A stretch of 64,000 bases of DNA from an uncultured archaeon (GCA_964407715.1 CAYOWP010000001.1:16622-80621), one strand, 5' to 3'. Shown: positions 1-64,000, counted from the stretch's first letter. The notes: generated by a model not told the origin, from the sequence alone. Numbers and translations: made by a program.

Positions 1-388
1 CAAGAGGTTACCATGCTGCAATGTGGTTGTGAAAGGAATTTCCTCCCGTTAACCATATTTTATCTTAAAATAACTGGTTAAGGGGAAGCATAGCCATTCA
101 TTCGGCGTATCACAGCATCTAACCTTTTCAAGAGGTTAGAGAGCATCTAACCTTTTAAAATGGTTACCATGCTGCAATGTGGTTTGATAAGAGTTTTCCC
201 CTTAACCAGTTATTTTAAAAAATGGTTAACGGGAAGCGTAGCCTCTCAAGAGAGCATATCAAAGCAGCTAACTTTTCTAAGCGGTTGAGAAGCACCTATC
301 CTTTTGAAGTGGTTACAATGCTGTGAGGTGGTTTGAAAAAGCATTTTTCCGTTAACCAAATTTTCAAAATACATTATTGGGCAAAATC
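1..388. repeat. Structured intergenic repeat array, locus A (module 1 units in reverse orientation, truncated by the window start)
   Basis: Repeated arms tggttaaggggaagcatagcc / ttccccttaacc and inner palindrome partners ggcgtatcacagcatctaacc ... ggttaccatgctgcaatgtgg. About 2.5 units. Ends with gttaaccaaattttcaaaatacattattgggcaaaa, as at 12180. Confidence 0.85.
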
Positions 389-6450: not shown

Positions 6451-7131
6451 ATGATATCAAGCTTAAGGATTGTATCTAATAGAAAAGGATCAAATCCAGG
6501 AGGTTTTGCATATCTTAATGATCTCTATGTTTATGTGAAATACTCTTTTATTGGAGAAAATCTTACAGGTACTCCTTTAAAGGTTGAGCATCAACCAATC
6601 TATGAGTACATTACAGGGGAAATCTTGAAATTTTATGGGTTTAAAGTACCGAAGAGATATGTTATTGAGGGAGAGAGAATAAAGATAATTAATGAGATTA
6701 ACAATCCTGATTTCTATAAAAAGAGACCTTATTATTTATTATCTGTATATGTTAAATACGAGCCTAATGGCAAATTTGATATATCTCAAAAATGTATGCT
6801 AGATAAATTGGGGATGTGTGATATTATAGGAAAGGGAGATAATTATGGCATGATTGAGGAAGGATCCTTTATAATTATTGATTGCGGTTGTTCTTTTGTT
6901 GAGAGTGTAAACGGAAGAATGAGAGTTAAAGAGGAATATAAAAGAGCATATAATGAACAAAAAATAAAAATTAAATCAAGAAAGATAAAAAAGGAAATCT
7001 CAAAAATTATTAAATATATAGGGGATATCACAATAGATACCTATTTCTCAAACATTCCAATAAATAAGATTTTGAACAAAGACGAAATTGAATTTATCAA
7101 ATCCTACTATATATGGAAAATGTGCCAATAA
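6451..7131 (+). CDS. hypothetical protein (226 aa); weak small-kinase-like motif
   Basis: MCDIIGKGDNYGMIEEGSFIIIDCGCSF resembles the catalytic loop plus DFG region of Bud32/RIO-type kinases. Weak. Confidence 0.35.
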   Translation: MISSLRIVSNRKGSNPGGFAYLNDLYVYVKYSFIGENLTGTPLKVEHQPIYEYITGEILKFYGFKVPKRYVIEGERIKIINEINNPDFYKKRPYYLLSVYVKYEPNGKFDISQKCMLDKLGMCDIIGKGDNYGMIEEGSFIIIDCGCSFVESVNGRMRVKEEYKRAYNEQKIKIKSRKIKKEISKIIKYIGDITIDTYFSNIPINKILNKDEIEFIKSYYIWKMCQ

Positions 7132-7142
7132 TCTTGATAAAG

Positions 7143-7848
7143 AGTTTGTTAACGCAATAAGAATTTCTCCACCTATCAACCTCTTTATAATGTTACCATG
7201 CTACGATATGCTCTCTAGAGGAGGTATATTTTGCGTTAACTAAATTTTTATTTAAAAAATCTGGTTAACGCAAGAAATCGCTTTCCAATGCACATAGCAG
7301 CATGCTAACCGCTTTCAATGGTTAGCTGCTTCAATATGTTTTCTTGATGATATGCAGTTCTCCTTAACCAAATTTTCAAAAATAAAAAATGGTTAACGGG
7401 AAGCATAACCATCACTAAAAGGTTTGCAGCATTCTAACCTCTATCAATGGTTAGCTGCTGTGATGTGCTGAATGAATAGGTTATGCTTCCCCTTAACCAT
7501 TTTAAAAAATAATAAGATATGGTTAACGCGAGGAAATCCCTCTCATAAAAGGTTTGCAGCATGCTAACCTCTTGAAAAGGTTAGCTGCTTCCATACGCAA
7601 AATGAAAAGGTTATTTTTCCCCTTAACCATTTTATTTTATTTAAAAAATCTGGTTAACGCGAGGAAATCGCTTTTACAACCATATTGCTTTAAAATGGGT
7701 TAGCATGCTCCAAGGTGCTTGTGGAAGCGATTTTCTTCCGTAACCAATTAACAAATTCAGGCATTGTCCAATAATTCTTTATTGTTAAGCGGAAATTTAA
7801 CGCGCAAATAGCACTTTTTTTGTTAATAGAGAATTATCGGACAATGCC
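7143..7848. repeat. Structured intergenic repeat array, locus B (degenerate unit, 4 forward module 1 units, TIR mini-element at 7760-7848)
   Basis: Units ggttaacg(g/c)gaag...gcagcatgctaacc...ggttagctgcttc...ggttatgcttccccttaacc with AT-rich spacers. Terminal ggcattgtccaataattctttattgttaagcggaaa ... ttgttaatagagaattatcggacaatgcc inverted pair. Confidence 0.9.
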
Positions 7849-7895
7849 ACCAATTCAGTTAATTAAAATGTATTTTTAAATTTTACTTTTTTATA

Positions 7896-8741
7896 ATGGT
7901 ATTAATTATGGAAGAAAAACCTCCTATTGAGTATGAGAGGATTTTGAATTCTTTTTTGGAGTTGTATGAGGATAAAAGAGGAGGAAAAATTGTACGTAAG
8001 GTATGTGATAAAGCATATGATTTCATGCTTAAAATTTATGGTATGGGAGCAGCACCAGGATTGTTCTTAAATTATAAGCAAATAGATGGAATAATGAACA
8101 AGGCTGAGGCATTTGTAAAAAGCAATCTCTATTTTTGGCAAGAAACTTTCAAGTTTGTTACTGATCCTCAAACATATAAAATGGCTAGTCATTTCTTATA
8201 CAATCTTTATCATAATAAACATTTCACAATGTTCGATGTTTTGCCATATCAAGCTCAAATAGAAAAGATAGGAAAGGTGTTCTATCATATTGATAAGGGA
8301 TGGAAGAACATAATATATAACTTTCCGATATATATGGGCTTAGGATTATTAGTGATAGGTTTTGCATTGATTACTACAGAGACATTGAATGGCATAGTAA
8401 GAGGTTTCATCTCCAAGAAAGAGATACATATAGAAGATTTAAAAGAAAGGGAAAAAGAGATTATTATAGGACATATTCTTTTAGGATACGAGAGATGGGC
8501 AAGCTATGAGGAAGGAGAATGGAAAAAGCTTAAAGAAGAATATGATGAAATCATTAACAGATTGGGAGAACTTATTTTTAAAAGAGAGAATTGGAAAGAA
8601 GAAGGAGAACTTTTGAGGTTTTTATATATAAGAGAAACAATTAAAAAGGAGAGAAAAGTGAGAAAGGCTGATAAGTTCTTTATGAATGTTTATAGAGAGA
8701 TAAAAGATGAGATAATAACTCAACCAAAAATCTCATCTTAA
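7896..8741 (+). CDS. hypothetical membrane-associated protein (281 aa)
   Basis: ORF with a central hydrophobic segment and no motif. Confidence 0.4.
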   Translation: MVLIMEEKPPIEYERILNSFLELYEDKRGGKIVRKVCDKAYDFMLKIYGMGAAPGLFLNYKQIDGIMNKAEAFVKSNLYFWQETFKFVTDPQTYKMASHFLYNLYHNKHFTMFDVLPYQAQIEKIGKVFYHIDKGWKNIIYNFPIYMGLGLLVIGFALITTETLNGIVRGFISKKEIHIEDLKEREKEIIIGHILLGYERWASYEEGEWKKLKEEYDEIINRLGELIFKRENWKEEGELLRFLYIRETIKKERKVRKADKFFMNVYREIKDEIITQPKISS

Positions 8742-9571
8742 ATCTTTGATATCTTTGTTATTTCATAAAGCGCATAAAATATATCTCTTTGCGATGTTTT
8801 TGCTTTTAATATTGCGATATCTTTATCTGGGTTATTCAAAATTATGTTTGTTACTTTTTTCTTTAGTTTTTTATAAAAACTCTCGTGTAGGTTGCTTCCT
8901 ATTCCTCCTCCAAAAATGAATGTTTTTATTCCTAATATTTGATATATTGTGGCTAACAAACATGAAAGGGCATCGAGAGTATATTCCTCGAACAATTCTT
9001 CATTCTCTCTATATATCTGCAAAGGATACCTAACAGCATTGTATTTCTTTTTGTACTCTTTCATGATACCCTCTGTTCCAAGCAATTGCTCATATGTTTT
9101 TTTAGTTTTGTAATCGCATATCGCATGCCCAATCTCACCAGCAAACAAGTTTTCTCCTTTAAAAATTTTTCCTTTATGGATTATTCCTGCACCTATTCCA
9201 GTTCCCCACACAATACCTACTAAGTTTTCAATTTTGGTTTTAAGAAACTGCGAAAAAGCAAACACATTTGCATCATTTTCAACATATATCTCTTTTATTG
9301 GAAATATCTTCGCAAAATCTAAATTATTCATCCACATAGCATTTGGAGAAATTAAAATGGTTGTATTCTTCACGAATCCTGCAATAGAGATTGAGATTTT
9401 ATTTGGAGAATATCTAATAAATAAATCATTTAGCGTGTTGATAAACACCTCTTTATCAAAGATGTTATGTTCATCGTAATATATCTTTTCCTCAAATAAA
9501 AGATTCCCTTCTTCTATAAGAGCATATGCTATTTTACTGCCGCCTATATCAAGACACAGGACTTTTTGCAT
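8738..9571 (-). CDS. ROK-family sugar kinase (glucokinase-like)
   Basis: N-terminal LCLDIGGSKIAYAL, then GTGIGAGIIHKGKIFKGENLFAGEIGH ROK signature. Confidence 0.65.
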   Translation of the reverse strand: MQKVLCLDIGGSKIAYALIEEGNLLFEEKIYYDEHNIFDKEVFINTLNDLFIRYSPNKISISIAGFVKNTTILISPNAMWMNNLDFAKIFPIKEIYVENDANVFAFSQFLKTKIENLVGIVWGTGIGAGIIHKGKIFKGENLFAGEIGHAICDYKTKKTYEQLLGTEGIMKEYKKKYNAVRYPLQIYRENEELFEEYTLDALSCLLATIYQILGIKTFIFGGGIGSNLHESFYKKLKKKVTNIILNNPDKDIAILKAKTSQRDIFYALYEITKISKI

Positions 9572-9730
9572 TGTTTCACTTTATCAATAACTTTCCACCC
9601 TTTTTAACATCTCTTCAAGTGCTGCCTTTTTTGGATCCTGAAGTTGAGATTTCTTTCTTTTATTTTCTGGCTTATATTCTGACAGCATTTTTATCTTGTC
9701 ATATAAATCCATTGTGATCACCTCTTTATG

Positions 9731-10288
9731 CTATTCCTCCGATTCTCTTCCTACAATATCAGTCACGCTAACAATAATAAACCCTATTGTTACTAATGTT
9801 ATAGTTATTGCAACAGTATATGGATCTATAACTATCCAGAAATCTCTAAACATATATCCTAAGGTTTCATAAAACAATATGAAAATCACAATCGTTATAA
9901 TACCTGCTATCACATATTTCAGCGTGTTATTCTGTTTAACAATATCTGTACCAAATTTTACTCCCAATATTGATAAGGTTAAAGGTATTAATAACAAAGT
10001 TACAGCCAATACACCCCACTTTGTAAATAACTCAGATAAGAACTCAGTTATTGTTCTTGTTTGAGGAGCATAATAAATAATCAAAGTAGCCATTGTTATT
10101 GCAAGTAATCTATTAATTCTCTCTACATTCTTTCCTTTCTCTTTACCAAATATGTTTACCCTTGATAATAAACCATAGATAATAACAAAATACAATAACC
10201 AAGGTAAAGCATAATCAAACAAGCCCATATCTTCAAAAATATAAAGCACATTCCCAATTAAGGATGAATCAAACCACCCATGAAACAT
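9731..10288 (-). CDS. polytopic membrane protein, copy 2 of a duplicated gene
   Basis: 185 aa with 4-5 TM segments. Nucleotide-identical to 10768-11367 except the C-terminus. Confidence 0.55.
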   Translation of the reverse strand: MFHGWFDSSLIGNVLYIFEDMGLFDYALPWLLYFVIIYGLLSRVNIFGKEKGKNVERINRLLAITMATLIIYYAPQTRTITEFLSELFTKWGVLAVTLLLIPLTLSILGVKFGTDIVKQNNTLKYVIAGIITIVIFILFYETLGYMFRDFWIVIDPYTVAITITLVTIGFIIVSVTDIVGRESEE

Positions 10289-10767: not shown

Positions 10768-11367
10768 TCACTCTGTTTCTTTCTTTTCTTCCTCTTCTCC
10801 CTCCTCTTCACTTTCTTCTGATTCCCTACCCACAATATCAGTCACGCTAACAATAATAAACCCTATTGTTACTAATGTTATAGTTATTGCAACAGTATAT
10901 GGATCTATAACTATCCAGAAATCTCTAAACATATATCCTAAGGTTTCATAAAACAATATGAAAATCACAATCGTTATAATACCTGCTATCACATATTTCA
11001 GCGTGTTATTCTGTTTAACAATATCTGTACCAAATTTTACTCCCAATATTGATAAGGTTAAAGGTATTAATAACAAAGTTACAGCCAATACACCCCACTT
11101 TGTAAATAACTCAGATAAGAACTCAGTTATTGTTCTTGTTTGAGGAGCATAATAAATAATCAAAGTAGCCATTGTTATTGCAAGTAATCTATTAATTCTC
11201 TCTACATTCTTTCCTTTCTCTTTACCAAATATGTTTACCCTTGATAATAAACCATAGATAATAACAAAATACAATAACCAAGGTAAAGCATAATCAAACA
11301 AGCCCATATCTTCAAAAATATAAAGCACATTCCCAATTAAGGATGAATCAAACCACCCATGAAACAT
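10768..11367 (-). CDS. polytopic membrane protein, copy 1 (acidic C-terminal extension)
   Basis: Identical to 9731-10288 plus a C-terminal SEEEGEEEEKKETE tail. Confidence 0.55.
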   Translation of the reverse strand: MFHGWFDSSLIGNVLYIFEDMGLFDYALPWLLYFVIIYGLLSRVNIFGKEKGKNVERINRLLAITMATLIIYYAPQTRTITEFLSELFTKWGVLAVTLLLIPLTLSILGVKFGTDIVKQNNTLKYVIAGIITIVIFILFYETLGYMFRDFWIVIDPYTVAITITLVTIGFIIVSVTDIVGRESEESEEEGEEEEKKETE

Positions 11368-12049: not shown

Positions 12050-12370
12050 AAGTATGCTCAATAATTCTTTATGGTTAAGCGGAAAGTATACCTTATCAAT
12101 AGCACATCAAAGCAGCCAACACTCTTGAAAAAGGTTAGCATACTGCAAAACTTTAGGTAAAGATATGATTTCTGTTAACCAAATTTTTAAAATACGTTAT
12201 TGGACAAAACTGGAATTGTCAAAAAATTTTTGATGAAGGTCTGTTAACAAGAAAACTTATTCTTGCAATCGCATTAGCTCTCTAAGGTTTGCTTTCTCTA
12301 ATACGCTTCTTTAAAAGGTTACTTTTCCGCTTAACAAAATTTTGTTAATAGAGAATTATTGGACAATGCC
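12050..12370. repeat. Composite module 2 element bounded by TIR-like ends, locus C
   Basis: Left gctcaataattctttatggttaagcggaaag, right ttgttaatagagaattattggacaatgcc. Interior aatcgcattagctctctaaggtttgctttctctaatacgcttcttt is homologous to 63560-63610. Confidence 0.85.
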
Positions 12371-12425
12371 GACAAAACTGGCTTTTCATAAAAATATATA
12401 ACTATGTGTGAAATAAATTATTAAT

Positions 12426-12965: not shown

Positions 12966-13018
12966 AAATTTTTAGTTTTTTATATGTTTATTTATATTCT
13001 ATGAGGACAAGTTATTAT

Positions 13019-13093
13019 GGGACCGTGGGGTAGCCTGGACTAGCCTTCCACCTTGGGGTGGTGGCGACCCGCGTTCAAATCGCGGCGGTCCCA
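13019..13093 (+). tRNA. tRNA-Pro (anticodon GGG)
   Basis: Acceptor GGGACCG/CGGTCCC, anticodon arm CCACC-TTGGGGT-GGTGG, T-arm GCGCG-TTCAAAT-CGCGC. CCA not encoded. Confidence 0.8.
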
Positions 13094-13230
13094 TCATTCG
13101 AATTTGTGAAATTTTTATCTAAAGAGCAATCGATTTATTTTTGTTTTAATGAAATCTATCCTCAATCTTCTTTGATAGATCAATAGACCCTTTCATTTTG
13201 CAATATCTTCAACTAAAGCAAATAAAATTT

Positions 13231-14625
13231 TTAATAACCGATTGCAATAAAACTCCATTTACTAGGACCAGCACGTTGGAATCCATTGTAAAATCTAAAT
13301 TGTGATAAGGAGGTAGGATAATATACCCAATTATCTTCGTATTCATCTGCGTCATAAGGTTTACCGGTAAAATCAGAATTTGTTTTAGGAGTCACAACTA
13401 ATGAAAAAAATTGGTGAGTAAAAGAAATCGGCAGATTAATTAATCTAACCGATGATATAGGACAATAGAATTCCCCCCACTGAATGATTAAACCATTTGA
13501 AAACTTTATATATCCATTGGTAGATAAAGAAGAATCTATAATCCCTCCTCCTTCCGGCCAGCTAGTTCGACAATCATTGCCAATACATAAGCCATCTCTT
13601 CCTTTGACATAACCAGCAACATCTAATTTCGCTTGTGGATTTGTTGTACCTATACCTACATTACCATTTCCTTTTATAATTACTTTATCATCCCCAGCAA
13701 TTTGAAATCGAATATTGTCGCTATCTTGTTCGTTATTAATTACCACATCTTTTCTATCAGATCCATAATCACGTAATCCAAACATTGCTAAATCTGAATC
13801 CCAATGAACAGTGAAACCTCTAAATTTACCAGAGGGAATTTGGCTTCCACCACAACATGTAGGATCATATCGACCGATATATTGATGTGCATTTTGATCA
13901 AAAATCTCTAATTTTGACTGTGGATTTGGCGTCCCTATGCCAACATTACCATTATTTTTAATAACAAACATATCCCACTGAGTAACTCCGCTATCAGAAG
14001 TATATCCAATAGTAATCCTCTCCTGACCACTTGGATTTCGAATATGCCAATATCCAGAACCAGCAGTTCTTTCTAAGGTAATCCAATCTCCATTTCCTTG
14101 TTTGATTCCAAGTTTACCATGTGGAGATGTTGTTCCTATACCTACTTTACCTGTGCTAACATCCACAAACAATTTCCCACTTCCAATGTTAAGATTTCCT
14201 GATCCTGTAATAGAACCAGAGATTTTTATATCTCCACTAACATCCAACTTTGCTGTTGGTGAAGCTGTCCCTATTCCAACTCTTCCAGTGCTAACATCCA
14301 CAAATAACTTTCCACTACCGATGTTCAAGTTACCTGATGCGATAATAGCGCCAGCAGAGTTTAATCCGCCTACATTGATTGTGTGCGTAGTGGTGGCTCC
14401 ATTGTTTGTTATGTCTTGTAATGTATCTTCTATGATTCCAGCATCTATCCTTCTATTCTCGTCTGCATCAATGGTTGTTAAATCACTTTTAGTTTTTGCG
14501 ATTTGCGAGAGATAATGCCATGGTCTTGTTATGTCAACTTTTACAGCTAATGCTATGGAATATAAAAGCATAAGCGTTATCAAAACCTGAATTCCTATTG
14601 ATATGAGTTTTTGTGAGCGTTTCAT
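13231..14625 (-). CDS. secreted beta-helix repeat protein (tail-fibre-like GxxGIGTxxPxxKLDV repeats)
   Basis: Signal/TM N-terminus and repeats GSGNLNIGSGKLFVDVSTG(R/K)VGIGT(A/T)SP, GNVGIGTPNPQSKLEI, GNVGIGTTNPQAKLDVAG. Internal nucleotide tandem repeat 14133-14205 vs 14268-14340. Confidence 0.55.
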   Translation of the reverse strand: MKRSQKLISIGIQVLITLMLLYSIALAVKVDITRPWHYLSQIAKTKSDLTTIDADENRRIDAGIIEDTLQDITNNGATTTHTINVGGLNSAGAIIASGNLNIGSGKLFVDVSTGRVGIGTASPTAKLDVSGDIKISGSITGSGNLNIGSGKLFVDVSTGKVGIGTTSPHGKLGIKQGNGDWITLERTAGSGYWHIRNPSGQERITIGYTSDSGVTQWDMFVIKNNGNVGIGTPNPQSKLEIFDQNAHQYIGRYDPTCCGGSQIPSGKFRGFTVHWDSDLAMFGLRDYGSDRKDVVINNEQDSDNIRFQIAGDDKVIIKGNGNVGIGTTNPQAKLDVAGYVKGRDGLCIGNDCRTSWPEGGGIIDSSLSTNGYIKFSNGLIIQWGEFYCPISSVRLINLPISFTHQFFSLVVTPKTNSDFTGKPYDADEYEDNWVYYPTSLSQFRFYNGFQRAGPSKWSFIAIGY

Positions 14626-15912: not shown

Positions 15913-16193
15913 GGATAGGTTATGTTTTCCGTTAACCATTTTTAAAATAATTGGTTAACGGGAAGCATAACCTATCCAAAGCATATTGCAGCAAGGTATC
16001 CTTTCAAAAAGGTTAGCTGCTTCAGTCTGCTGGATAAAAGGGTTATGTTTTCCGTTAACCAAATTTTTATTTTAATGAAAAATGGTTAACGGGAGGAAAT
16101 CGCTTTCTCAAGGCACATTAGAGCATGCTAACCCTCTACAAAAGGTTAGCTACTTCAATACGCCAAATGAAAGGGTTATACTTCCCGTTAACC
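15913..16193. repeat. Structured intergenic repeat array, locus D (two forward module 1 units plus a perfect 25-bp hairpin)
   Basis: GGATAGGTTATGTTTTCCGTTAACC-15 nt-GGTTAACGGGAAGCATAACCTATCC, then gcagcaaggtatcc...ggttagctgcttc...ggttatgttttccgttaacc, then ggttaacgggaggaaatcgc...gagcatgctaacc...ggttagctacttcaatacgc...gggttatacttcccgttaacc. Confidence 0.9.
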
Positions 16194-16254
16194 GATTATT
16201 TTGCATAAATAAAAAATAGAAAAATTTTTTAATTTATGTGAGAAAGGAAGATTT

Positions 16255-18723: not shown

Positions 18724-18770
18724 ACTTAAGATTTTAAATATGTTGACCTTATAGTATTGAGCAGCAAACT

Positions 18771-18874
18771 TTGTTAACGGGAAGCATAGCTTTATACAAA
18801 GGGTTAACTGCTCTCATACACTTCTTTGAGAGGTTATGTTTCCGCTTAACAATAAAGAATTATTGGACAATGCC
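18771..18874. repeat. Intergenic repeat, locus E (module 1 left arm plus module 2 right TIR)
   Basis: ttgttaacgggaagcatagc ... ttatgtttccgcttaacaataaagaattattggacaatgcc. Confidence 0.85.
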
Positions 18875-18907
18875 TGACCTTATATAACTGCAGAAACTTA
18901 TTTAAAT

Positions 18908-21622: not shown

Positions 21623-21742
21623 TTACTAAAGACTCTATATCAAGTTTCTCTTCTTTTTTGCTTTTTTTCTTTACTATCACCATAAAATCCCCTATTATCT
21701 TATATGTTTGTGGTTATATATATAATTTAAAGTAAAAATTTT

Positions 21743-22240
21743 GGTTAACAGGAAAAATCCATTTTACAACCACATTGCAGCGTGATAACCTTTTTATTTT
21801 TGGTTATCTGCTTTGCAATGAGCTTTTTAGCAGATCCTGTTTCCTGTTAACCATTTTTGTTTTGGTTAACGGGAAACATACCTTATCGAGAAACCACATT
21901 ACAGCATCTAACCATTCTAAAGAGGTTAGCATGCTGTAATTTGGCTTTGAAAAGCGATCTCTTCCCGTTAACCATTTTTGTTTTGGTTAACAGGAAACAT
22001 ACCTTATCGAGAAACCACATTACAGCAGCTAACCCTTTAAAGCGGTTAGCATGCTGTAATGTGCCTCGGAAAAGTGATTCTCTCCCGTTAACCAATTTTT
22101 ATTATTTTTTAAATTGGTTAACTGGAAACATACCTTTTTCATTTGAGGTATTAGAGCAGCTAACCTTTCACTTGGGTTAGCATGCCGCAAGAGCTTTATG
22201 ATAGCGATTTCTTCCCGTTAACCATTTATCTGCGTTAACC
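21743..22240. repeat. Structured intergenic repeat array, locus F (about 4 units with fully palindromic inner cores)
   Basis: Near-identical units ggttaacgggaaacataccttatcgagaaaccacattacagca(t/g)ctaacc...ggttagcatgctgtaat(t/g)tgg...cttcccgttaacc-atttttgtttt. Creates spurious ORFs 21857-22180(+) and 21883-22095(-). Confidence 0.9.
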
Positions 22241-29551: not shown

Positions 29552-29619
29552 AATCTCACCTCACATAATTATTATAAAATCTTAAAATTATATATAATTT
29601 AATTTTGTTTTTATAGGGT

Positions 29620-29754
29620 GAGCATTGTCCAATAATGTGTTTTGAGAAATTTTGTTAACGGGAAACATAGCTATATTTAAAGGATTAAACTGCTATAAGT
29701 GTTATTTGCGCGTTAAGTTTCCACTTAACAAATGGAGGATTATTGGACAATGCC
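29620..29754. repeat. Complete small module 2 element with about 60-nt TIRs, locus G
   Basis: gagcattgtccaataat...ttgttaacgggaaacatagc...ctataagtgttatttgcgcgttaagtttccacttaacaa...attattggacaatgcc. Overlaps the annotated 5' end of the next ORF. Confidence 0.85.
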
Positions 29755-30754
29755 TATAAGGTGCAAATTTATGGTAACATCCATAGAAAAGAGTATAAAT
29801 CACTTTGTAGATTATTTCAAAGAAGCGTTTGAGATGTATAAAAACATAGATGTGGAAGATATTAAAAACAAATTCTCTTCAAATAAAGAGATTATCATTT
29901 GTGGTATGGGAGGTTCTGGAATAGCAGGCATGATTGTTGAGCGTTTATTCGAAGATAAAAATATCATAGGAATGACAACAGATGAAATACCTAGCAAATA
30001 TAAAGACGCAAATTTTATATTGGTCAGCTATTCTGGGAATACACATGAGGTATTAAATGCGTTTGATAAATATAAAAATAATGTAGTGTGTGCTATAACA
30101 ACAGGAGGTAAATTAAAAGAAAAATGTGAAAACAATGGAATAAAAGCTTTTGAATTACCTTCGGGATTTATCCCCAGAAGTACATTACCCCATATGATCG
30201 TATTGCTCTCTTATATTCTTAATAGACTAGGCGTAATTTCTGAATCAGACATAGAGAAAATAAGGGAAGCTATTAATGAACTTGAAGTTGTGAAAGATAT
30301 GCTTTTGAATAATGCTAAAGAGATTGCAAAAAACATAAATCATGATGATATTTTAGTATTTCTTACATCCTATACCTTATATCCTGCAGCATACCGAACA
30401 AAAACTCAAATAAATGAAACTTGCAAAATGCATTCATATGCAGAGTTTTTTTCTGAGCATAATCACAATAGTATAATGGCTATAAAGCAACATGTTAAAA
30501 ATGTTTTCTATGTAATATATAAAGATCCATTTGATAATCAACTCAAAAAAAGGTTTGAGTTCTTTATTAACAAACTTAGAGGATTTAGATATAGATATGT
30601 GGATATAGAGATAGAGGCAAAAAGCAGAGAAATGGCTATGCTATCATATATACTATATGGAGATTATTTAAGCGTTGAAATAGCAAAAAGGTTTAATATA
30701 GATATGGAAACAGGAGATATTATCAAGGAGTTAAAAGAATTTTTGAATGGATAA
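29732..30754 (+). CDS. bifunctional phosphoglucose/phosphomannose isomerase (SIS domain)
   Basis: CGMGGSGIAG and VSYSGNT SIS motifs. The first 7 codons lie inside the repeat, so the true start is probably M7 (29750) or later. Confidence 0.65.
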   Translation: MEDYWTMPIRCKFMVTSIEKSINHFVDYFKEAFEMYKNIDVEDIKNKFSSNKEIIICGMGGSGIAGMIVERLFEDKNIIGMTTDEIPSKYKDANFILVSYSGNTHEVLNAFDKYKNNVVCAITTGGKLKEKCENNGIKAFELPSGFIPRSTLPHMIVLLSYILNRLGVISESDIEKIREAINELEVVKDMLLNNAKEIAKNINHDDILVFLTSYTLYPAAYRTKTQINETCKMHSYAEFFSEHNHNSIMAIKQHVKNVFYVIYKDPFDNQLKKRFEFFINKLRGFRYRYVDIEIEAKSREMAMLSYILYGDYLSVEIAKRFNIDMETGDIIKELKEFLNG

Positions 30755-30869: not shown

Positions 30870-31115
30870 TTGAAAGGAAGAATAGAAGAACTGGGGCGTT
30901 ATAATAAAAATTTTGAAGGATATATCATAAAGATAGATAACATCGCCTCTTTTATTTCTCCTAAATTAAAGGATTTCTTATGGAGAAGAGGAGAGAAATA
31001 TAGAGATATTGACCCTCGAATACCATATAACTATAAAAGATATGGAAATGAGCTAAATGAAATCTATTGGAAAATTCTATCTGAAAAGAAATATTCTTCT
31101 GTTAACCAAAAATAA
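30870..31115 (+). CDS. small hypothetical protein (81 aa); its 3' end runs into a repeat
   Basis: The ORF terminates inside ctgttaaccaaaaataa of locus I. Doubtful. Confidence 0.25.
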   Translation: MKGRIEELGRYNKNFEGYIIKIDNIASFISPKLKDFLWRRGEKYRDIDPRIPYNYKRYGNELNEIYWKILSEKKYSSVNQK

Positions 31116-31358
31116 AAAATGGTTAAAGGGAAGCATAGCCTATTCATTTGGCATGTTGAAGCAACTAACCTTTCATAGAGGTTAGCATGCTGTAATGTGC
31201 CTTGTAGAAGGGATATTCTTCCGTTAACCTTTTATTTTAAATAAAAAATGGTTGGGTGAAACATAACTTCTTAAGAGAGTATGTAACAGCAGCTAACCTG
31301 CTTAGAAAGGTTAGCTGTCTTGATATTCTGAATGAAGGGAGTAGCCTTTTCGTTAACC
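31099..31358. repeat. Structured intergenic repeat array, locus I (two reverse module 1 units)
   Basis: ggttaaagggaagcatagcc...gcatgttgaagcaactaacc...ggttagcatgctgtaatgtgcc...cttccgttaacc, then a second degenerate unit. Confidence 0.85.
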
Positions 31359-31380
31359 TTTTTCATCAAATTTTTTGATG

Positions 31381-40513: not shown

Positions 40514-40547
40514 TGTTTCACATCAACAAATTTCTCAAGAGAAATTT

Positions 40548-40809
40548 GGTTAACGAGAAAGCATCTTTTCCAAGAGGTTTAGAGCATGCTAACCATTGAA
40601 AAAGGTTATGTGCTGCAAGTCGGTTTTTGATATTGGGCATCTTCCCATTAACCAAATTTTCTAATAAAAAACAATTGTTAACAGGAAAATATCGATATTC
40701 TCCAGTGAATGCGGCATGCTAACCTTTTGATAAGGCTAGGTGCTGTAAATGTGCCATTTGAATGGCTATACTTTCCCTTAACCAATTTTAAATAAAAATT
40801 GTTAACGAG
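40548..40809. repeat. Structured intergenic repeat array, locus J (two degenerate forward units)
   Basis: ggttaacgagaaagc...gagcatgctaacc...ggttatgtgctgc...cttcccattaacc, spacer, ttgttaacaggaaaat...gcatgctaacc...ctttcccttaacc. Confidence 0.8.
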
Positions 40810-50462: not shown

Positions 50463-50532
50463 ATTCAGAAGGGCATCAGAAAATTTTTGAAATTGTAAAG
50501 GATTTCATGGTTGAAAGATTACTTTCTTCATA

Positions 50533-50615
50533 ATCGCTATGAAGTGTTAAACCGCTATAAGTGCTATTTGCGTGTTATGTTTCCGCTTAACAATAGAGAA
50601 TTATTGGACAATGCC
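50533..50615. repeat. Solo module 2 terminal repeat, locus K
   Basis: ccgctataagtgctatttgcgtgttatgtttccgcttaacaatagagaattattggacaatgcc. Confidence 0.8.
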
Positions 50616-50671
50616 TTTTTGAACCTTTATCTAAAAAAGTTATAAATATTTTCATTAATAAAATTATTTTT

Positions 50672-59932: not shown

Positions 59933-60600
59933 CGTTTAACCTTAAAAAGCGATTTGAAACAGATAACCTTTTTAAAGCAGTTAGCTGCTTAAAAAACCTT
60001 TGTGTTATTGAGATTTTCCCGTTAACAAATTAAAAATTTTTAATAAAAATGGTTAACGGGAAGATATCACTATCACAAGCACATTACAGCATGCTACCCT
60101 CTTAAAAAAGGTTAGCTGCTTGAAAACGCTAAATGAAAGGGTTATGCTTCCCGTTAACAAATTATTTAAAAAATAAAAAATGGTTAACGGGAGGAAATCG
60201 CTATCATATAAAGTTTTGCAAGCATGCTAACCTCTACAAAAGGTTAGCTGCTTCTTAACCGCTTTAGAAAGGTTAGCTGCTTCAATACGCCAAATGAAAG
60301 GGTTATGCTTCCCGTTAACCAATTATTTTAAAAATAAAAAATGGTTAACGGGAGGAAATCGCTTTCTCAAGGCACATCGCAGCATGCTAACCTCTTTTCA
60401 GGTTAGCTGCTTCAAACCGCTCGAGAAAAGGAGCTATGCTTTGATGCGCTATTGATAAGGTATGCTTCCCATTAACAATTTTTTAAATAATTTGGTTAAC
60501 ATGAGACCTCTCTTATCAATAGCACATTAAAGCATGGCATCCTTTCTTGAGCGGTTTGAAGCAGCTAATCTTTTAACCCTTAATTTGGTTAATATGCCGC
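59933..60600. repeat. Structured intergenic repeat array, locus L (largest; 4 forward units including one with a duplicated inner element)
   Basis: ggttaacgggaag...acagcatgctacc...ggttagctgcttg...gggttatgcttcccgttaac. A second unit carries ggttagctgctt twice. The third ends ...ggtatgcttcccattaac. The fourth is degenerate. Confidence 0.9.
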
Positions 60601-62667: not shown

Positions 62668-63420
62668 TCATATTTTACTGAATAACTCTCTAAGAATAAA
62701 GTACTTTTTGTTTATCTCCTTATTGCTCTTTCTTATTTTTTCTAAGCGTTTTTCCAGTTCCTTCACTTTCTCTTCAATCTTTGCCGGATGCTTTCTGATG
62801 TCCTTCTCTATGGCTTTTATAATTTTTATCTCTTTAATGATTTTTTCCTTTTCCATTTCAAATTCTTTAAATGCATTTTCTAAGCTTTCCAACTTTTTCA
62901 TTCTTTTGTCAATGATATCTGTAACGTTTTTAAGATCCTTCTCCAACTCTGCCTCTTCTTCTTTTATCTTATTGAATACCTCAAGGATCTCTTTTTCCTT
63001 CTCTCTTATTCTTTTTAACAAATCCTCCATTTCCTCCCTTTTTTTCAAGTCTCTCTCTAACACATTTTCCAATTCTTTAAGTATCTCTATTTCCTTTTTC
63101 AATACCTTTTCCTTTTCTTGAACATTATACTCAATCTCTTTAATCGTTTTTTCACTGTCATCATATAATTTTTGAGTTACTTCCTTTGATTTTTCTTCTA
63201 CATCATGCGGGAGAGTTACATAAATTCTTCCAAAGGAGTATTCCAAGTTCACTAAGCCCTCTCCTTCCAATGCCTTAGCCCATTTCTCCACTACCTCTAT
63301 TGGAAGAGAGAGAGCATTGGATACTTCTTTAATACTTACTTTACCTTTTGTGGAAACAATCTCTAAGAATTTATCTATATCGCTTCCTTTTTTTATCTCC
63401 TCTAATATCTCTTTAGCCAT
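62668..63420 (-). CDS. winged-helix plus coiled-coil protein (hypothetical regulator)
   Basis: N-terminal VSIKEVSNALSLPIEVVEKWAKALEGEGLV wHTH, then a long E/K coiled coil. Confidence 0.4.
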   Translation of the reverse strand: MAKEILEEIKKGSDIDKFLEIVSTKGKVSIKEVSNALSLPIEVVEKWAKALEGEGLVNLEYSFGRIYVTLPHDVEEKSKEVTQKLYDDSEKTIKEIEYNVQEKEKVLKKEIEILKELENVLERDLKKREEMEDLLKRIREKEKEILEVFNKIKEEEAELEKDLKNVTDIIDKRMKKLESLENAFKEFEMEKEKIIKEIKIIKAIEKDIRKHPAKIEEKVKELEKRLEKIRKSNKEINKKYFILRELFSKI

Positions 63421-63501
63421 ATATTATCCAACCTCTTTATGATAATAAATTAAATATTAAATTTGAAATTTTTTATATCTTTATGGTTCTAATGGCTTTA
63501 T

Positions 63502-63650
63502 GGCATTGTCCAATAATTCTTTATTGTTAAGCGGAAACTTAACGCGCAAATAGCACTTATAGCAGTAATCGCATTAGCTCCATAAGGTTAGCTTTCTCTG
63601 ATGCGCTTCTTTGAAATGTTACTTTCATAGGGAATTATTGGACAACACCC
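63502..63650. repeat. Complete module 2 element with TIRs, locus M
   Basis: ggcattgtccaataattctttattgttaagcggaaacttaacgcgcaaatagcacttatag ... aatcgcattagctccataaggttagctttctctgatgcgcttcttt ... gggaattattggacaacaccc. Confidence 0.85.
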
Positions 63651-64000
63651 GGCTTTATTTCTATCTTAGTGTTGCATCCTTTGACATCTTCTCCAAATAA
63701 ATATCCCAACCATAAACGAGGATATCCGAGATAAGGTATTCTATAGATTACTTTTCCCTCTACATTCTCAATTGGTATTAGCCAAGGGTCAGGTTGAGAG
63801 TTATTATCTCCCCATGCAACCACATATTTATGCGAATCTTCAAGTAATTTCTTATATGCTCTATGAACTATCAACCTATCCTGAAGAGGCTCATAATATA
63901 CAATAATTGTAGAATTTGGATCCTTCCATTTTTCATTAGCAACAATCTCATCCCACGAGACACCTTTAACAATGATTACATCTCCTCTCTCCAATGTTGG
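63635..64000 (-). CDS. signal peptidase I (S26/Sec11-like), 5'-partial at the window edge
   Basis: The reading frame continues past the ORF's first Met to the window edge as ..PTLERGDVIIV (SM-PTL-GD box, truncated by the window end). A downstream WGDNNSQPD box is also present. Confidence 0.6.
   Translation of the reverse strand, partial: PTLERGDVIIVKGVSWDEIVANEKWKDPNSTIIVYYEPLQDRLIVHRAYKKLLEDSHKYVVAWGDNNSQPDPWLIPIENVEGKVIYRIPYLGYPRLWLGYLFGEDVKGCNTKIEIKPGVVQ

Follow-up and report, generated by a model that had tools for sequence, protein, structure and literature searches.

Dispersed MITE-like repeats bearing IS903-type termini in the DNA of an uncultured archaeon

The locus and the copies in the window

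The 64,000-nucleotide stretch of DNA analysed here, referred to as the window, is archaeal and has a GC content of 32%. It encodes aIF2-gamma and a bifunctional phosphoglucose/phosphomannose isomerase (PGI/PMI), with L21e, Rpb4 and a diphthamide synthase nearby. The aIF2-gamma has its closest relatives, at 72–81% identity, in hydrothermal-deposit metagenomes and is 58–59% identical to that of Methanocaldococcus, which was rejected as the host on account of this low figure; a dCTP-deaminase-like protein gave only weak PDB matches. Towards the right end of the window, a repeat element that we call the focal copy reaches into the end of a gene on the minus strand. It belongs to a family of MITEs with terminal inverted repeats (TIRs) and, at most copies, target-site duplications, and the features concerned are the following (a strand is given where one applies).

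63493..63501: left copy of the focal target-site duplication, 9 bp, tGGCTTTAT, matching the right copy at 8/9 positions
63502..63649: focal MITE copy, 148 bp, with an intact A-type end on the left
63502..63519, plus strand: focal left TIR, GGCATTGTCCAATAATTC
63632..63649, minus strand: focal right TIR, GAATTATTGGACAACACC
63650..63658: right copy of the focal target-site duplication, 9 bp, cGGCTTTAT
63635..64000, minus strand: 3′ portion of a 176-aa gene that continues past the window's end, mapped to the window from the gene call L033 2256–2786
7760..7848: MITE copy of 89 bp that has lost most of its core, with a TIR match of 22/24
12050..12211: older, decayed MITE copy, left terminus AAGTATGCTCAATAATTC, right terminus GTTATTGGACAAAACT
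12212..12370: nested MITE copy, 159 bp, with a B-type left end and an A-type right end
18754..18874: MITE copy of 121 bp whose left terminus, GTATTGAGCAGCAAAC, is decayed
29621..29754: MITE monomer, 134 bp, with a B-type left end and an A-type right end
50472..50615: MITE copy whose right end is A-type and intact and whose left end is decayed, with an uncertain left boundary

The window thus holds seven elements of 89–162 bp, intergenic without exception, and no ORF of at least 100 aa was found inside these copies. The 18-nt terminus GGCATTGTCCAATAATTC / GAATTATTGGACAATGCC, written in short as GGCATTGTCC / GGCATTGTCCAATAATTCTCTCTGAGAAT, occurs in the window at nine sites with at most 3 mismatches, against 0.12 expected, and the repeat family is real because of this excess. 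Facing pairs of termini are formed at 7760/7848, 29621/29754 and 63502/63649, with extra sites at 12353, 18857 and 50598. A 61-nt string (63502–63562) returns as its reverse complement at 50555–50615 with 3 mismatches, none being expected by chance from shuffles, and its 28-nt core is found at 7785, 29701 (−), 50563 (−) and 63527. An earlier note on this DNA had described a distinct recurring module bounded by terminal inverted repeats, and these counts bear it out. Since three independent assemblies (JGI, ENA and Logan) agree on the same arrangement of elements, it is not an assembly artefact.

The boundaries given in that note stand in part. The complete copies at 7760–7848, 29621–29754 and 63502–63649 are, to within a nucleotide, as it had them, but the stretch 12050–12370, taken for one copy, consists of two elements, one nested in the other. 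Its isolated right ends proved to be parts of longer copies, namely the 121-bp element 18754–18874, which has a 10-bp direct repeat, and the copy at 50.5 kb, which has a decayed left end. Its TIRs of about 60 nt shrink to 16–24 nt when the two ends of one copy are compared, with matches at 22/24 nt in 7760–7848, 15/16 in 29621–29754 and 16/18 in 63502–63649; the string of 45–60 nt is the A-type end. The homology that it saw between the interiors at 12.3 and 63.5 kb holds at 40/46 positions, but in the register 12270–12315 versus 63570–63615, a shift of 15 nt.

The focal copy has a subterminal deletion of about 10 nt at its right end and, folded as DNA, forms a hairpin closed by the TIRs (−22.4 kcal/mol, z = −4.3); its closest relative lies outside the window (L052:1379–1532). 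The last four codons and the stop of the 176-aa gene (GGT GTT GTC CAA TAA) are located inside the focal right TIR and are preceded by CCG. When the focal element and one copy of the duplication are removed, the gene ends in ...CCA TTA GAA CCA TAA, which suggests that the insertion took the place of the last three codons and brought in a stop of its own, giving ...KPGVVQ* from a reconstructed ...KPLEP*. The copy 29621–29754 ends 16 nt before the start codon (29771) of the phosphoglucose/phosphomannose isomerase gene, and most copy ends lie 15–110 nt from a start codon. A regulatory role was considered on the grounds of this proximity and rejected, the proximity being attributed instead to short intergenic spacers; no bias in orientation was seen.

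Elsewhere in the window, a 300-nt direct repeat (9734–10033 and 10813–11112, 98% identical) lies in two adjacent minus-strand ORFs (9731..10288 and 10768..11367) and is either a recent duplication or the outcome of gene conversion between paralogues. Positions 13018–13095 are called tRNA-Pro(GGG) by ARAGORN and score below the gathering threshold of the Rfam tRNA model, which could reflect an intron or an atypical structure. A 98-nt repeat (14122–14219 and 14257–14354, 77% identical) within a 464-aa minus-strand ORF (13231..14625) points to a repeat-containing protein.

Copy number, target-site duplications and anatomy

A scan of metagenomes with the 21-nt terminus led to 15 loci of a single JGI metagenome, Ga0190367, whose other contigs carry at least 19 further paired elements. 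One of these loci (L045) is 100% identical to window positions 7673–9834; the others are likewise low in GC, and most of them have arms of module 1, the window's other palindromic repeat, so that they probably stem from the same genome or population as the window. Elements outside the window in Ga0190367 measure 135–157 bp, about 250 bp (the commonest class) or 307–390 bp, which brings the family to 89–390 bp overall with 1–3 internal hairpin units. The nine copies of the 250-bp class are 87–93% identical across their full length, and a 157-bp monomer is identical at 152/157 positions to one (the left) unit of a 258-bp copy; we take both as signs of relatively recent activity.

Among 185,579 representative genomes, the exact 18-nt terminus gave only 32 single chance matches, all in unrelated organisms, and the host genome is therefore outside the representative set. 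The metagenome matches outside Ga0190367 in L036, L040, L042–L044, L050, L054 and L055 were discarded as conserved coding sequence of other organisms or as chance. In L036, L040, L043, L044, L050, L054 and L055 the exact 21-nt terminus coincides by chance with part of a conserved protein-coding gene (...KKFKELLDNA...) in unrelated organisms, and searches by pattern could be misled by it. Viral contigs scanned with the terminus and arm patterns yielded only chance coding matches.

Target-site duplications, which the earlier note had proposed to look for, flank most copies. The flanks agree at 7/8 positions or better in 15 of 22 elements, against 0.9% of controls in which the left flank of one element was paired with the right flank of another (binomial P ~2e-26). 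The signal depends sharply on length: at k = 9, at most one mismatch is seen in 9/22 elements and in 0/462 controls. The modal length is 9 bp, and lengths of 10 bp (three elements), 11 bp (one) and 8 bp (one) also occur. The duplications sit exactly outside the IS-type termini and are perfect at 12212–12370, 18754–18874, L035 and L041:10986. In the window, 7760–7848 is flanked by ACAAATTCA (7751–7759) and ACCAATTCA (7849–7857), and 29621–29754 by TATAGGGTG (29612–29620) and TATAAGGTG (29755–29763), each pair matching at 8/9 positions, and the 10-bp direct repeat of 18754–18874 is TGACCTTATA, at 18744–18753 and 18875–18884. For the copy at 50.5 kb, a left boundary at 50472 gives an element that begins GGCATCAG... 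and is without a duplication, whereas a boundary at 50492 gives the 8-bp direct repeat TTTTTGAA at 50484–50491 and 50616–50623.

A further case is the pair of elements at 12 kb. The right terminus of the copy 12050–12211 was the target of the later insertion 12212–12370, and the sequence, read directly, has the perfect 9-bp duplication GACAAAACT at 12203–12211 and 12371–12379; the nesting documents directly that an insertion took place. Many other duplications have one mismatch and several left termini are decayed (12050, 18754 and 50472), which argues that some members of the family are old and probably no longer move. The search for an empty site in a related strain gave none: relatives with a 72–81% identical aIF2-gamma are without the element, but their upstream synteny is not conserved, and other assemblies with the same flanking proteins represent the same population with the same insertions.

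When copies are aligned, the termini are nearly invariant and form the best conserved part of the element; the terminal repeats are thus conserved base by base between copies. Two types of end are distinguished. The A-type end, GGCATTGTCCAATAATTCTyTATTGTTAAGCGGAAAC..., is a conserved block of 45–60 nt found in either orientation depending on the copy, and the B-type end, composed of GGCATTGTCCAATAAT, TTTTGAGAAATTT and GTTAACGGG, closes the other side of the monomers of 134–159 bp. The interiors of the copies are mosaic and show deletions, and the number of internal units varies from 1 to 3. In the 250-bp form, an internal terminus that lacks its last three bases is present, ...ATTATTGGACAAT being directly followed by TTGTTAACGGG..., and the 157-bp monomer diverges from the 258-bp copy exactly at this point. 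The elements fold well (z = −4 to −5), the energy being supplied by the terminal repeats, and the A-type and module-1-type hairpin arms are not complementary to each other.

Module 1 is a palindromic unit of about 110 nt that begins TGGTTAACGGGAAG and ends CTTCCCGTTAACCA. It forms tandem arrays with a period of 121–149 nt and AT-rich linkers (window 2–358, 7199–7750, 15950–16240, 21730–22230, 31110–31360, 40545–40800 and 59945–60570), and these arrays are without IS-type termini; the copy 7760–7848 abuts the second of them. The MITE core aligns with module-1 units along the whole unit, with the invariant blocks GTTAAC, GGTTA.CTGCT and TTCC..TTAAC, as the earlier note's suggestion of a relationship between the two modules would lead one to expect, and about 28 nt of the left inner arm are missing through an internal deletion. 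The repeat families D3, D12 and D14 also show the relatedness of core and module 1. The core is thus a truncated module-1 unit, and because of this homology the MITE is best seen as a pair of IS ends enclosing a foreign core that derives from a different repeat of the host. In a related species whose aIF2-gamma is 81% identical (L068:480–930), the region upstream of the aIF2-gamma gene has no MITE and contains a degenerate module-1-like arm, AATAACGGGAAGATATTAC...; this arm hints that module 1 may be older than the MITE.

At two loci outside the window (L052:1379–2295 and L037:2326–3334), two MITEs bracket a cassette of about 510 bp that encodes a 62–63-aa protein and an 85-aa toxin of the ParE/RelE type (PF05016). 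The inner junctions of the cassette are identical at both loci. The unit in L052 is flanked by the perfect 8-bp repeat AGAACTGA, and the MITE–cassette–MITE arrangement there is an apparent composite transposon. At both loci the passenger begins and ends with TTTGATGTT, an inner 9-bp repeat for which composite transposition alone is insufficient; it would be accounted for if a small circle had integrated into a MITE already in place.

Insertion sequences with the same termini

Full-length IS with the same termini do exist, so far only in other metagenomes, which are from thermal sites. In L056, from another JGI metagenome, a terminus pair at 980–2093 spans 1114 bp and encloses a 316-aa ORF, and L058–L066 carry elements of 1093–1125 bp, each with one ORF (298–319 aa, L056 included). 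The termini of these full-length IS begin GG(C/T)(A/G)TTGTCCAATAATTC, and both ends read GG(C/T)(A/G)TTGTCCAATAATTCT in L056 and L058–L066; the inverted repeats (IRs) of the copies are GGTGTTGTCCAATAATTCT at both ends. Identity to the MITE terminus is 16–18/18. The left end of the L056 element, GGCATTGTCCAATAATTCTCTC, matches the A-type end of the MITE (focal positions 1–21) at 21/22 positions, and the focal right terminus, GAATTATTGGACAACACC, is the exact variant found on the IS copies of L059–L062, L064 and L065.

The L056 ORF matches the IS5 family transposase model NF033579 of NCBIfam with 199 bits (cutoff 140), as well as Pfam PF01609 (85 bits) and PF13737 (42 bits), and is an IS5-family DDE transposase. 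A homologue search returned close relatives at 65–92% identity, and IS copies were found on their contigs. Compared with IS903B, the transposase is 28% identical (E = 6e-30) over the IDSTG, ADGAYD and SIxE motifs, and it is at most 36% identical to other named members. IS903B itself, read from a Klebsiella plasmid (L067), is 1057 bp long with a perfect 18-bp IR, GGCTTTGTTGAATAAATC; the MITE terminus GGCATTGTCCAATAATTC is identical to the IS903 IR at 14/18 positions.

Apart from the termini, the IS and the MITE have no more than a weak subterminal resemblance in common. At positions 17–34, the A-type end agrees with the IS right end at 9–10/18, and the B-type end agrees with the IS left end at 9/18 and with the IS right end at only 2–3/18. 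Among the IS copies, a duplication of their own is seen only in L056, at 7/8; its absence from the others may be due to chimeric contigs, assembled across an IS that is present in many copies. The IS copies L059:588–1712 and L060:77–1201, which are identical and were found in different metagenomes, have a common left flank and different right flanks, which suggests recombination between IS copies or chimeric assembly.

The contigs that bear the IS all come from other samples and are without module-1 repeats. Beside the L064 IS lies a conserved GTPase with only 40% identity to its orthologue in the window, and the hosts of the IS, where they can be compared, appear to be distantly related to that of the window. 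A tblastn search with the transposase covered about 250 kb of host DNA, made up of the window and some 190 kb from other loci of Ga0190367, and found no homologue, so that present-day mobility is unproven. The earlier note had called for a TIR-recognising transposase elsewhere in the genome, or an extinct one, and the existence of these transposase-bearing IS of 1093–1125 bp, in other metagenomes only, supports it.

Explanations and comparison with known systems

The observed termini, their match to a transposase-bearing IS, the family of that transposase, the duplications, the one nested insertion and the wide intergenic dispersal together lead us to regard the repeats as very probably MITEs with the ends of an IS903-type (IS5-family) IS, mobilised by an IS903-type DDE transposase supplied in trans. 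The tips would be the 16–22-nt TIR GGCATTGTCCAATAATTC(TCT), the terminus of an IS5-family IS of about 1.1 kb with IS903-group characteristics. The transposase would bind both termini and cut out or copy the element, which would be inserted at a staggered 9-bp cut, and repair of this cut would leave the 9-bp direct repeats. We infer that this mobilisation took place in the window's host and that the transposase is present there now or was so recently. The earlier description of the repeats as non-autonomous, MITE-like derivatives is supported by their IS-type termini, target-site duplications and multiple dispersed copies. Of the two findings that the earlier note had named as refuting it, neither came about: further copies are numerous on other contigs of Ga0190367, and the terminal repeats are conserved from copy to copy.

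The family could also be a fossil, spread by an IS903-type transposase since lost, with copies that are now immobile and remain similar through recombination or gene conversion. That no transposase was found in the 250 kb of host DNA would suit such a history, as would the frequent one-mismatch duplications, the left termini decayed at 12050, 18754 and 50472, and the mosaic copies, which suggest recombination. However, the four perfect duplications listed above and the occurrence of copies 93–98% identical speak against it, the host DNA examined amounts to only about one sixth of a typical genome, and a multicopy IS is usually lost from metagenome contigs; we consider this reading possible and, on balance, doubtful. 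A different account would make the palindromic hairpin of module 1 the mobile unit, moved in the manner of REP/BIME elements by a RAYT-type enzyme, with the IS-like termini incidental. The homology of the core to module 1, the tandem arrays of module-1 units without IS termini and the one MITE that abuts such an array are in its favour, but the best conserved part of the element is its termini, which match those of an IS with a DDE transposase. To our knowledge, REP-type mobility makes no such target duplications as those seen here; their position, exactly at the outer edge of the IS-type termini, is at odds with a REP-like element, and we judge this account highly improbable.

We find it about as improbable that the repeats are genes for structured small RNAs, or regulatory palindromes to which proteins bind, and that selection maintains them in front of genes instead of transposition having dispersed them. 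As this would predict, the copies are without exception intergenic, fold well and have most of their ends close to start codons, but it is the terminal repeats that supply the fold energy, the A-type and module-1 hairpin arms do not pair, the interiors are mosaic and deleted, and the duplications and the nested insertion attest to insertion events. Rfam gave nothing at the gathering score and nothing at E ≤ 1 for 63400–63750, and only sub-threshold hairpin-like matches for 7100–7900. Within the reading of the repeats as MITEs with IS903-type ends, a more specific and rather unlikely scenario is a chimera, in which such ends captured a unit of module 1, a host repeat that would also multiply independently in tandem arrays. 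The resulting element would then have varied its number of units (1–3), and pairs of copies would have moved host genes, the ParE/RelE toxin–antitoxin cassette being the example. If so, the MITEs would be active vehicles of gene movement in this archaeal lineage, and module 1 would be tied to a second amplification mechanism.

As MITEs with IS903-type ends, the repeats make up a noticeable part of the intergenic DNA of an archaeal lineage that is uncultured and poorly known, and they explain breaks between assembly contigs, one Logan contig ending inside an element. They indicate that IS903-like recognition ends are common to enterobacterial plasmids and thermophilic archaea. They touch genes, one copy supplying a stop codon and another lying 16 nt from a start codon, and bear on gene movement, since paired copies bracket the toxin–antitoxin cassette at two loci. 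The element is of a common type, found in a host that has received little study, and knowledge of how MITEs work is unchanged; the borrowed palindromic core and the toxin–antitoxin composite add a modest extra interest.

Elements of the IS903 group measure about 1050 bp and have IRs of 15–27 bp and 9-bp duplications, whereas the other IS5 groups make duplications of 2–6 bp (PMC3281130, Table 2). Like members of the IS903 group (IS903B, ISAba12, ISPam1), the partner IS described here is 1.09–1.13 kb long, has a single DDE transposase ORF (PF01609 and PF13737) and ends in terminal repeats of 18–21 nt that begin GGC or GGT, and the duplications, here at the MITEs, are of 9 bp. Unlike IS903, the hosts are archaeal and from thermal environments, the transposase is only 28% identical to that of IS903B, and the elements in the window carry no transposase.

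Of the systems described so far, the pair MITEAba12/ISAba12 comes closest to the arrangement as a whole. MITEAba12 is a uniform, 113-bp, AT-rich, non-coding MITE with many intergenic copies and 9-bp duplications; its identity to the 1.0-kb IS5-family ISAba12 is confined to TIRs of about 16 nt, of the GGCTTTGTTGCATAAA type, the parent IS is co-resident and a transposition event was observed (PMC6382973). The present elements resemble it in being short, AT-rich, non-coding, intergenic and multicopy, in their TIR-only identity to an IS and in their 9-bp duplications. They differ in their range of 89–390 bp with 1–3 hairpin units and in a core derived from another host repeat, and no co-resident IS was found in about 250 kb.

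Among archaeal repeats, SM1–4 of Sulfolobus are reportedly MITEs, and MJRE of Methanocaldococcus jannaschii are said to be palindromic repeat elements. Both are small, non-coding, palindromic or TIR-bounded intergenic repeats of thermophilic archaea, some of which intrude into gene ends. By description, the elements of the window are similar small palindromic or TIR-bounded intergenic repeats, one copy of which intrudes into a gene end. The papers concerned, Redder et al. 2001 for the former and Suyama et al. 2005 for the latter, are cited in PMC2229807. In a Porphyromonas gingivalis MITE with a minisatellite, the number of internal repeats reportedly varies between fixed TIRs (PMC4596501). 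Unlike in that element, the internal unit here is a palindrome of about 110 nt that also occurs in free tandem arrays. Bacterial composite transposons flanked by pairs of MITEs bracket passenger genes; here the passenger is a toxin–antitoxin pair of the ParE/RelE type, and the host is an archaeon. From REP/BIME elements, finally, the present family differs by the target duplications at its ends.
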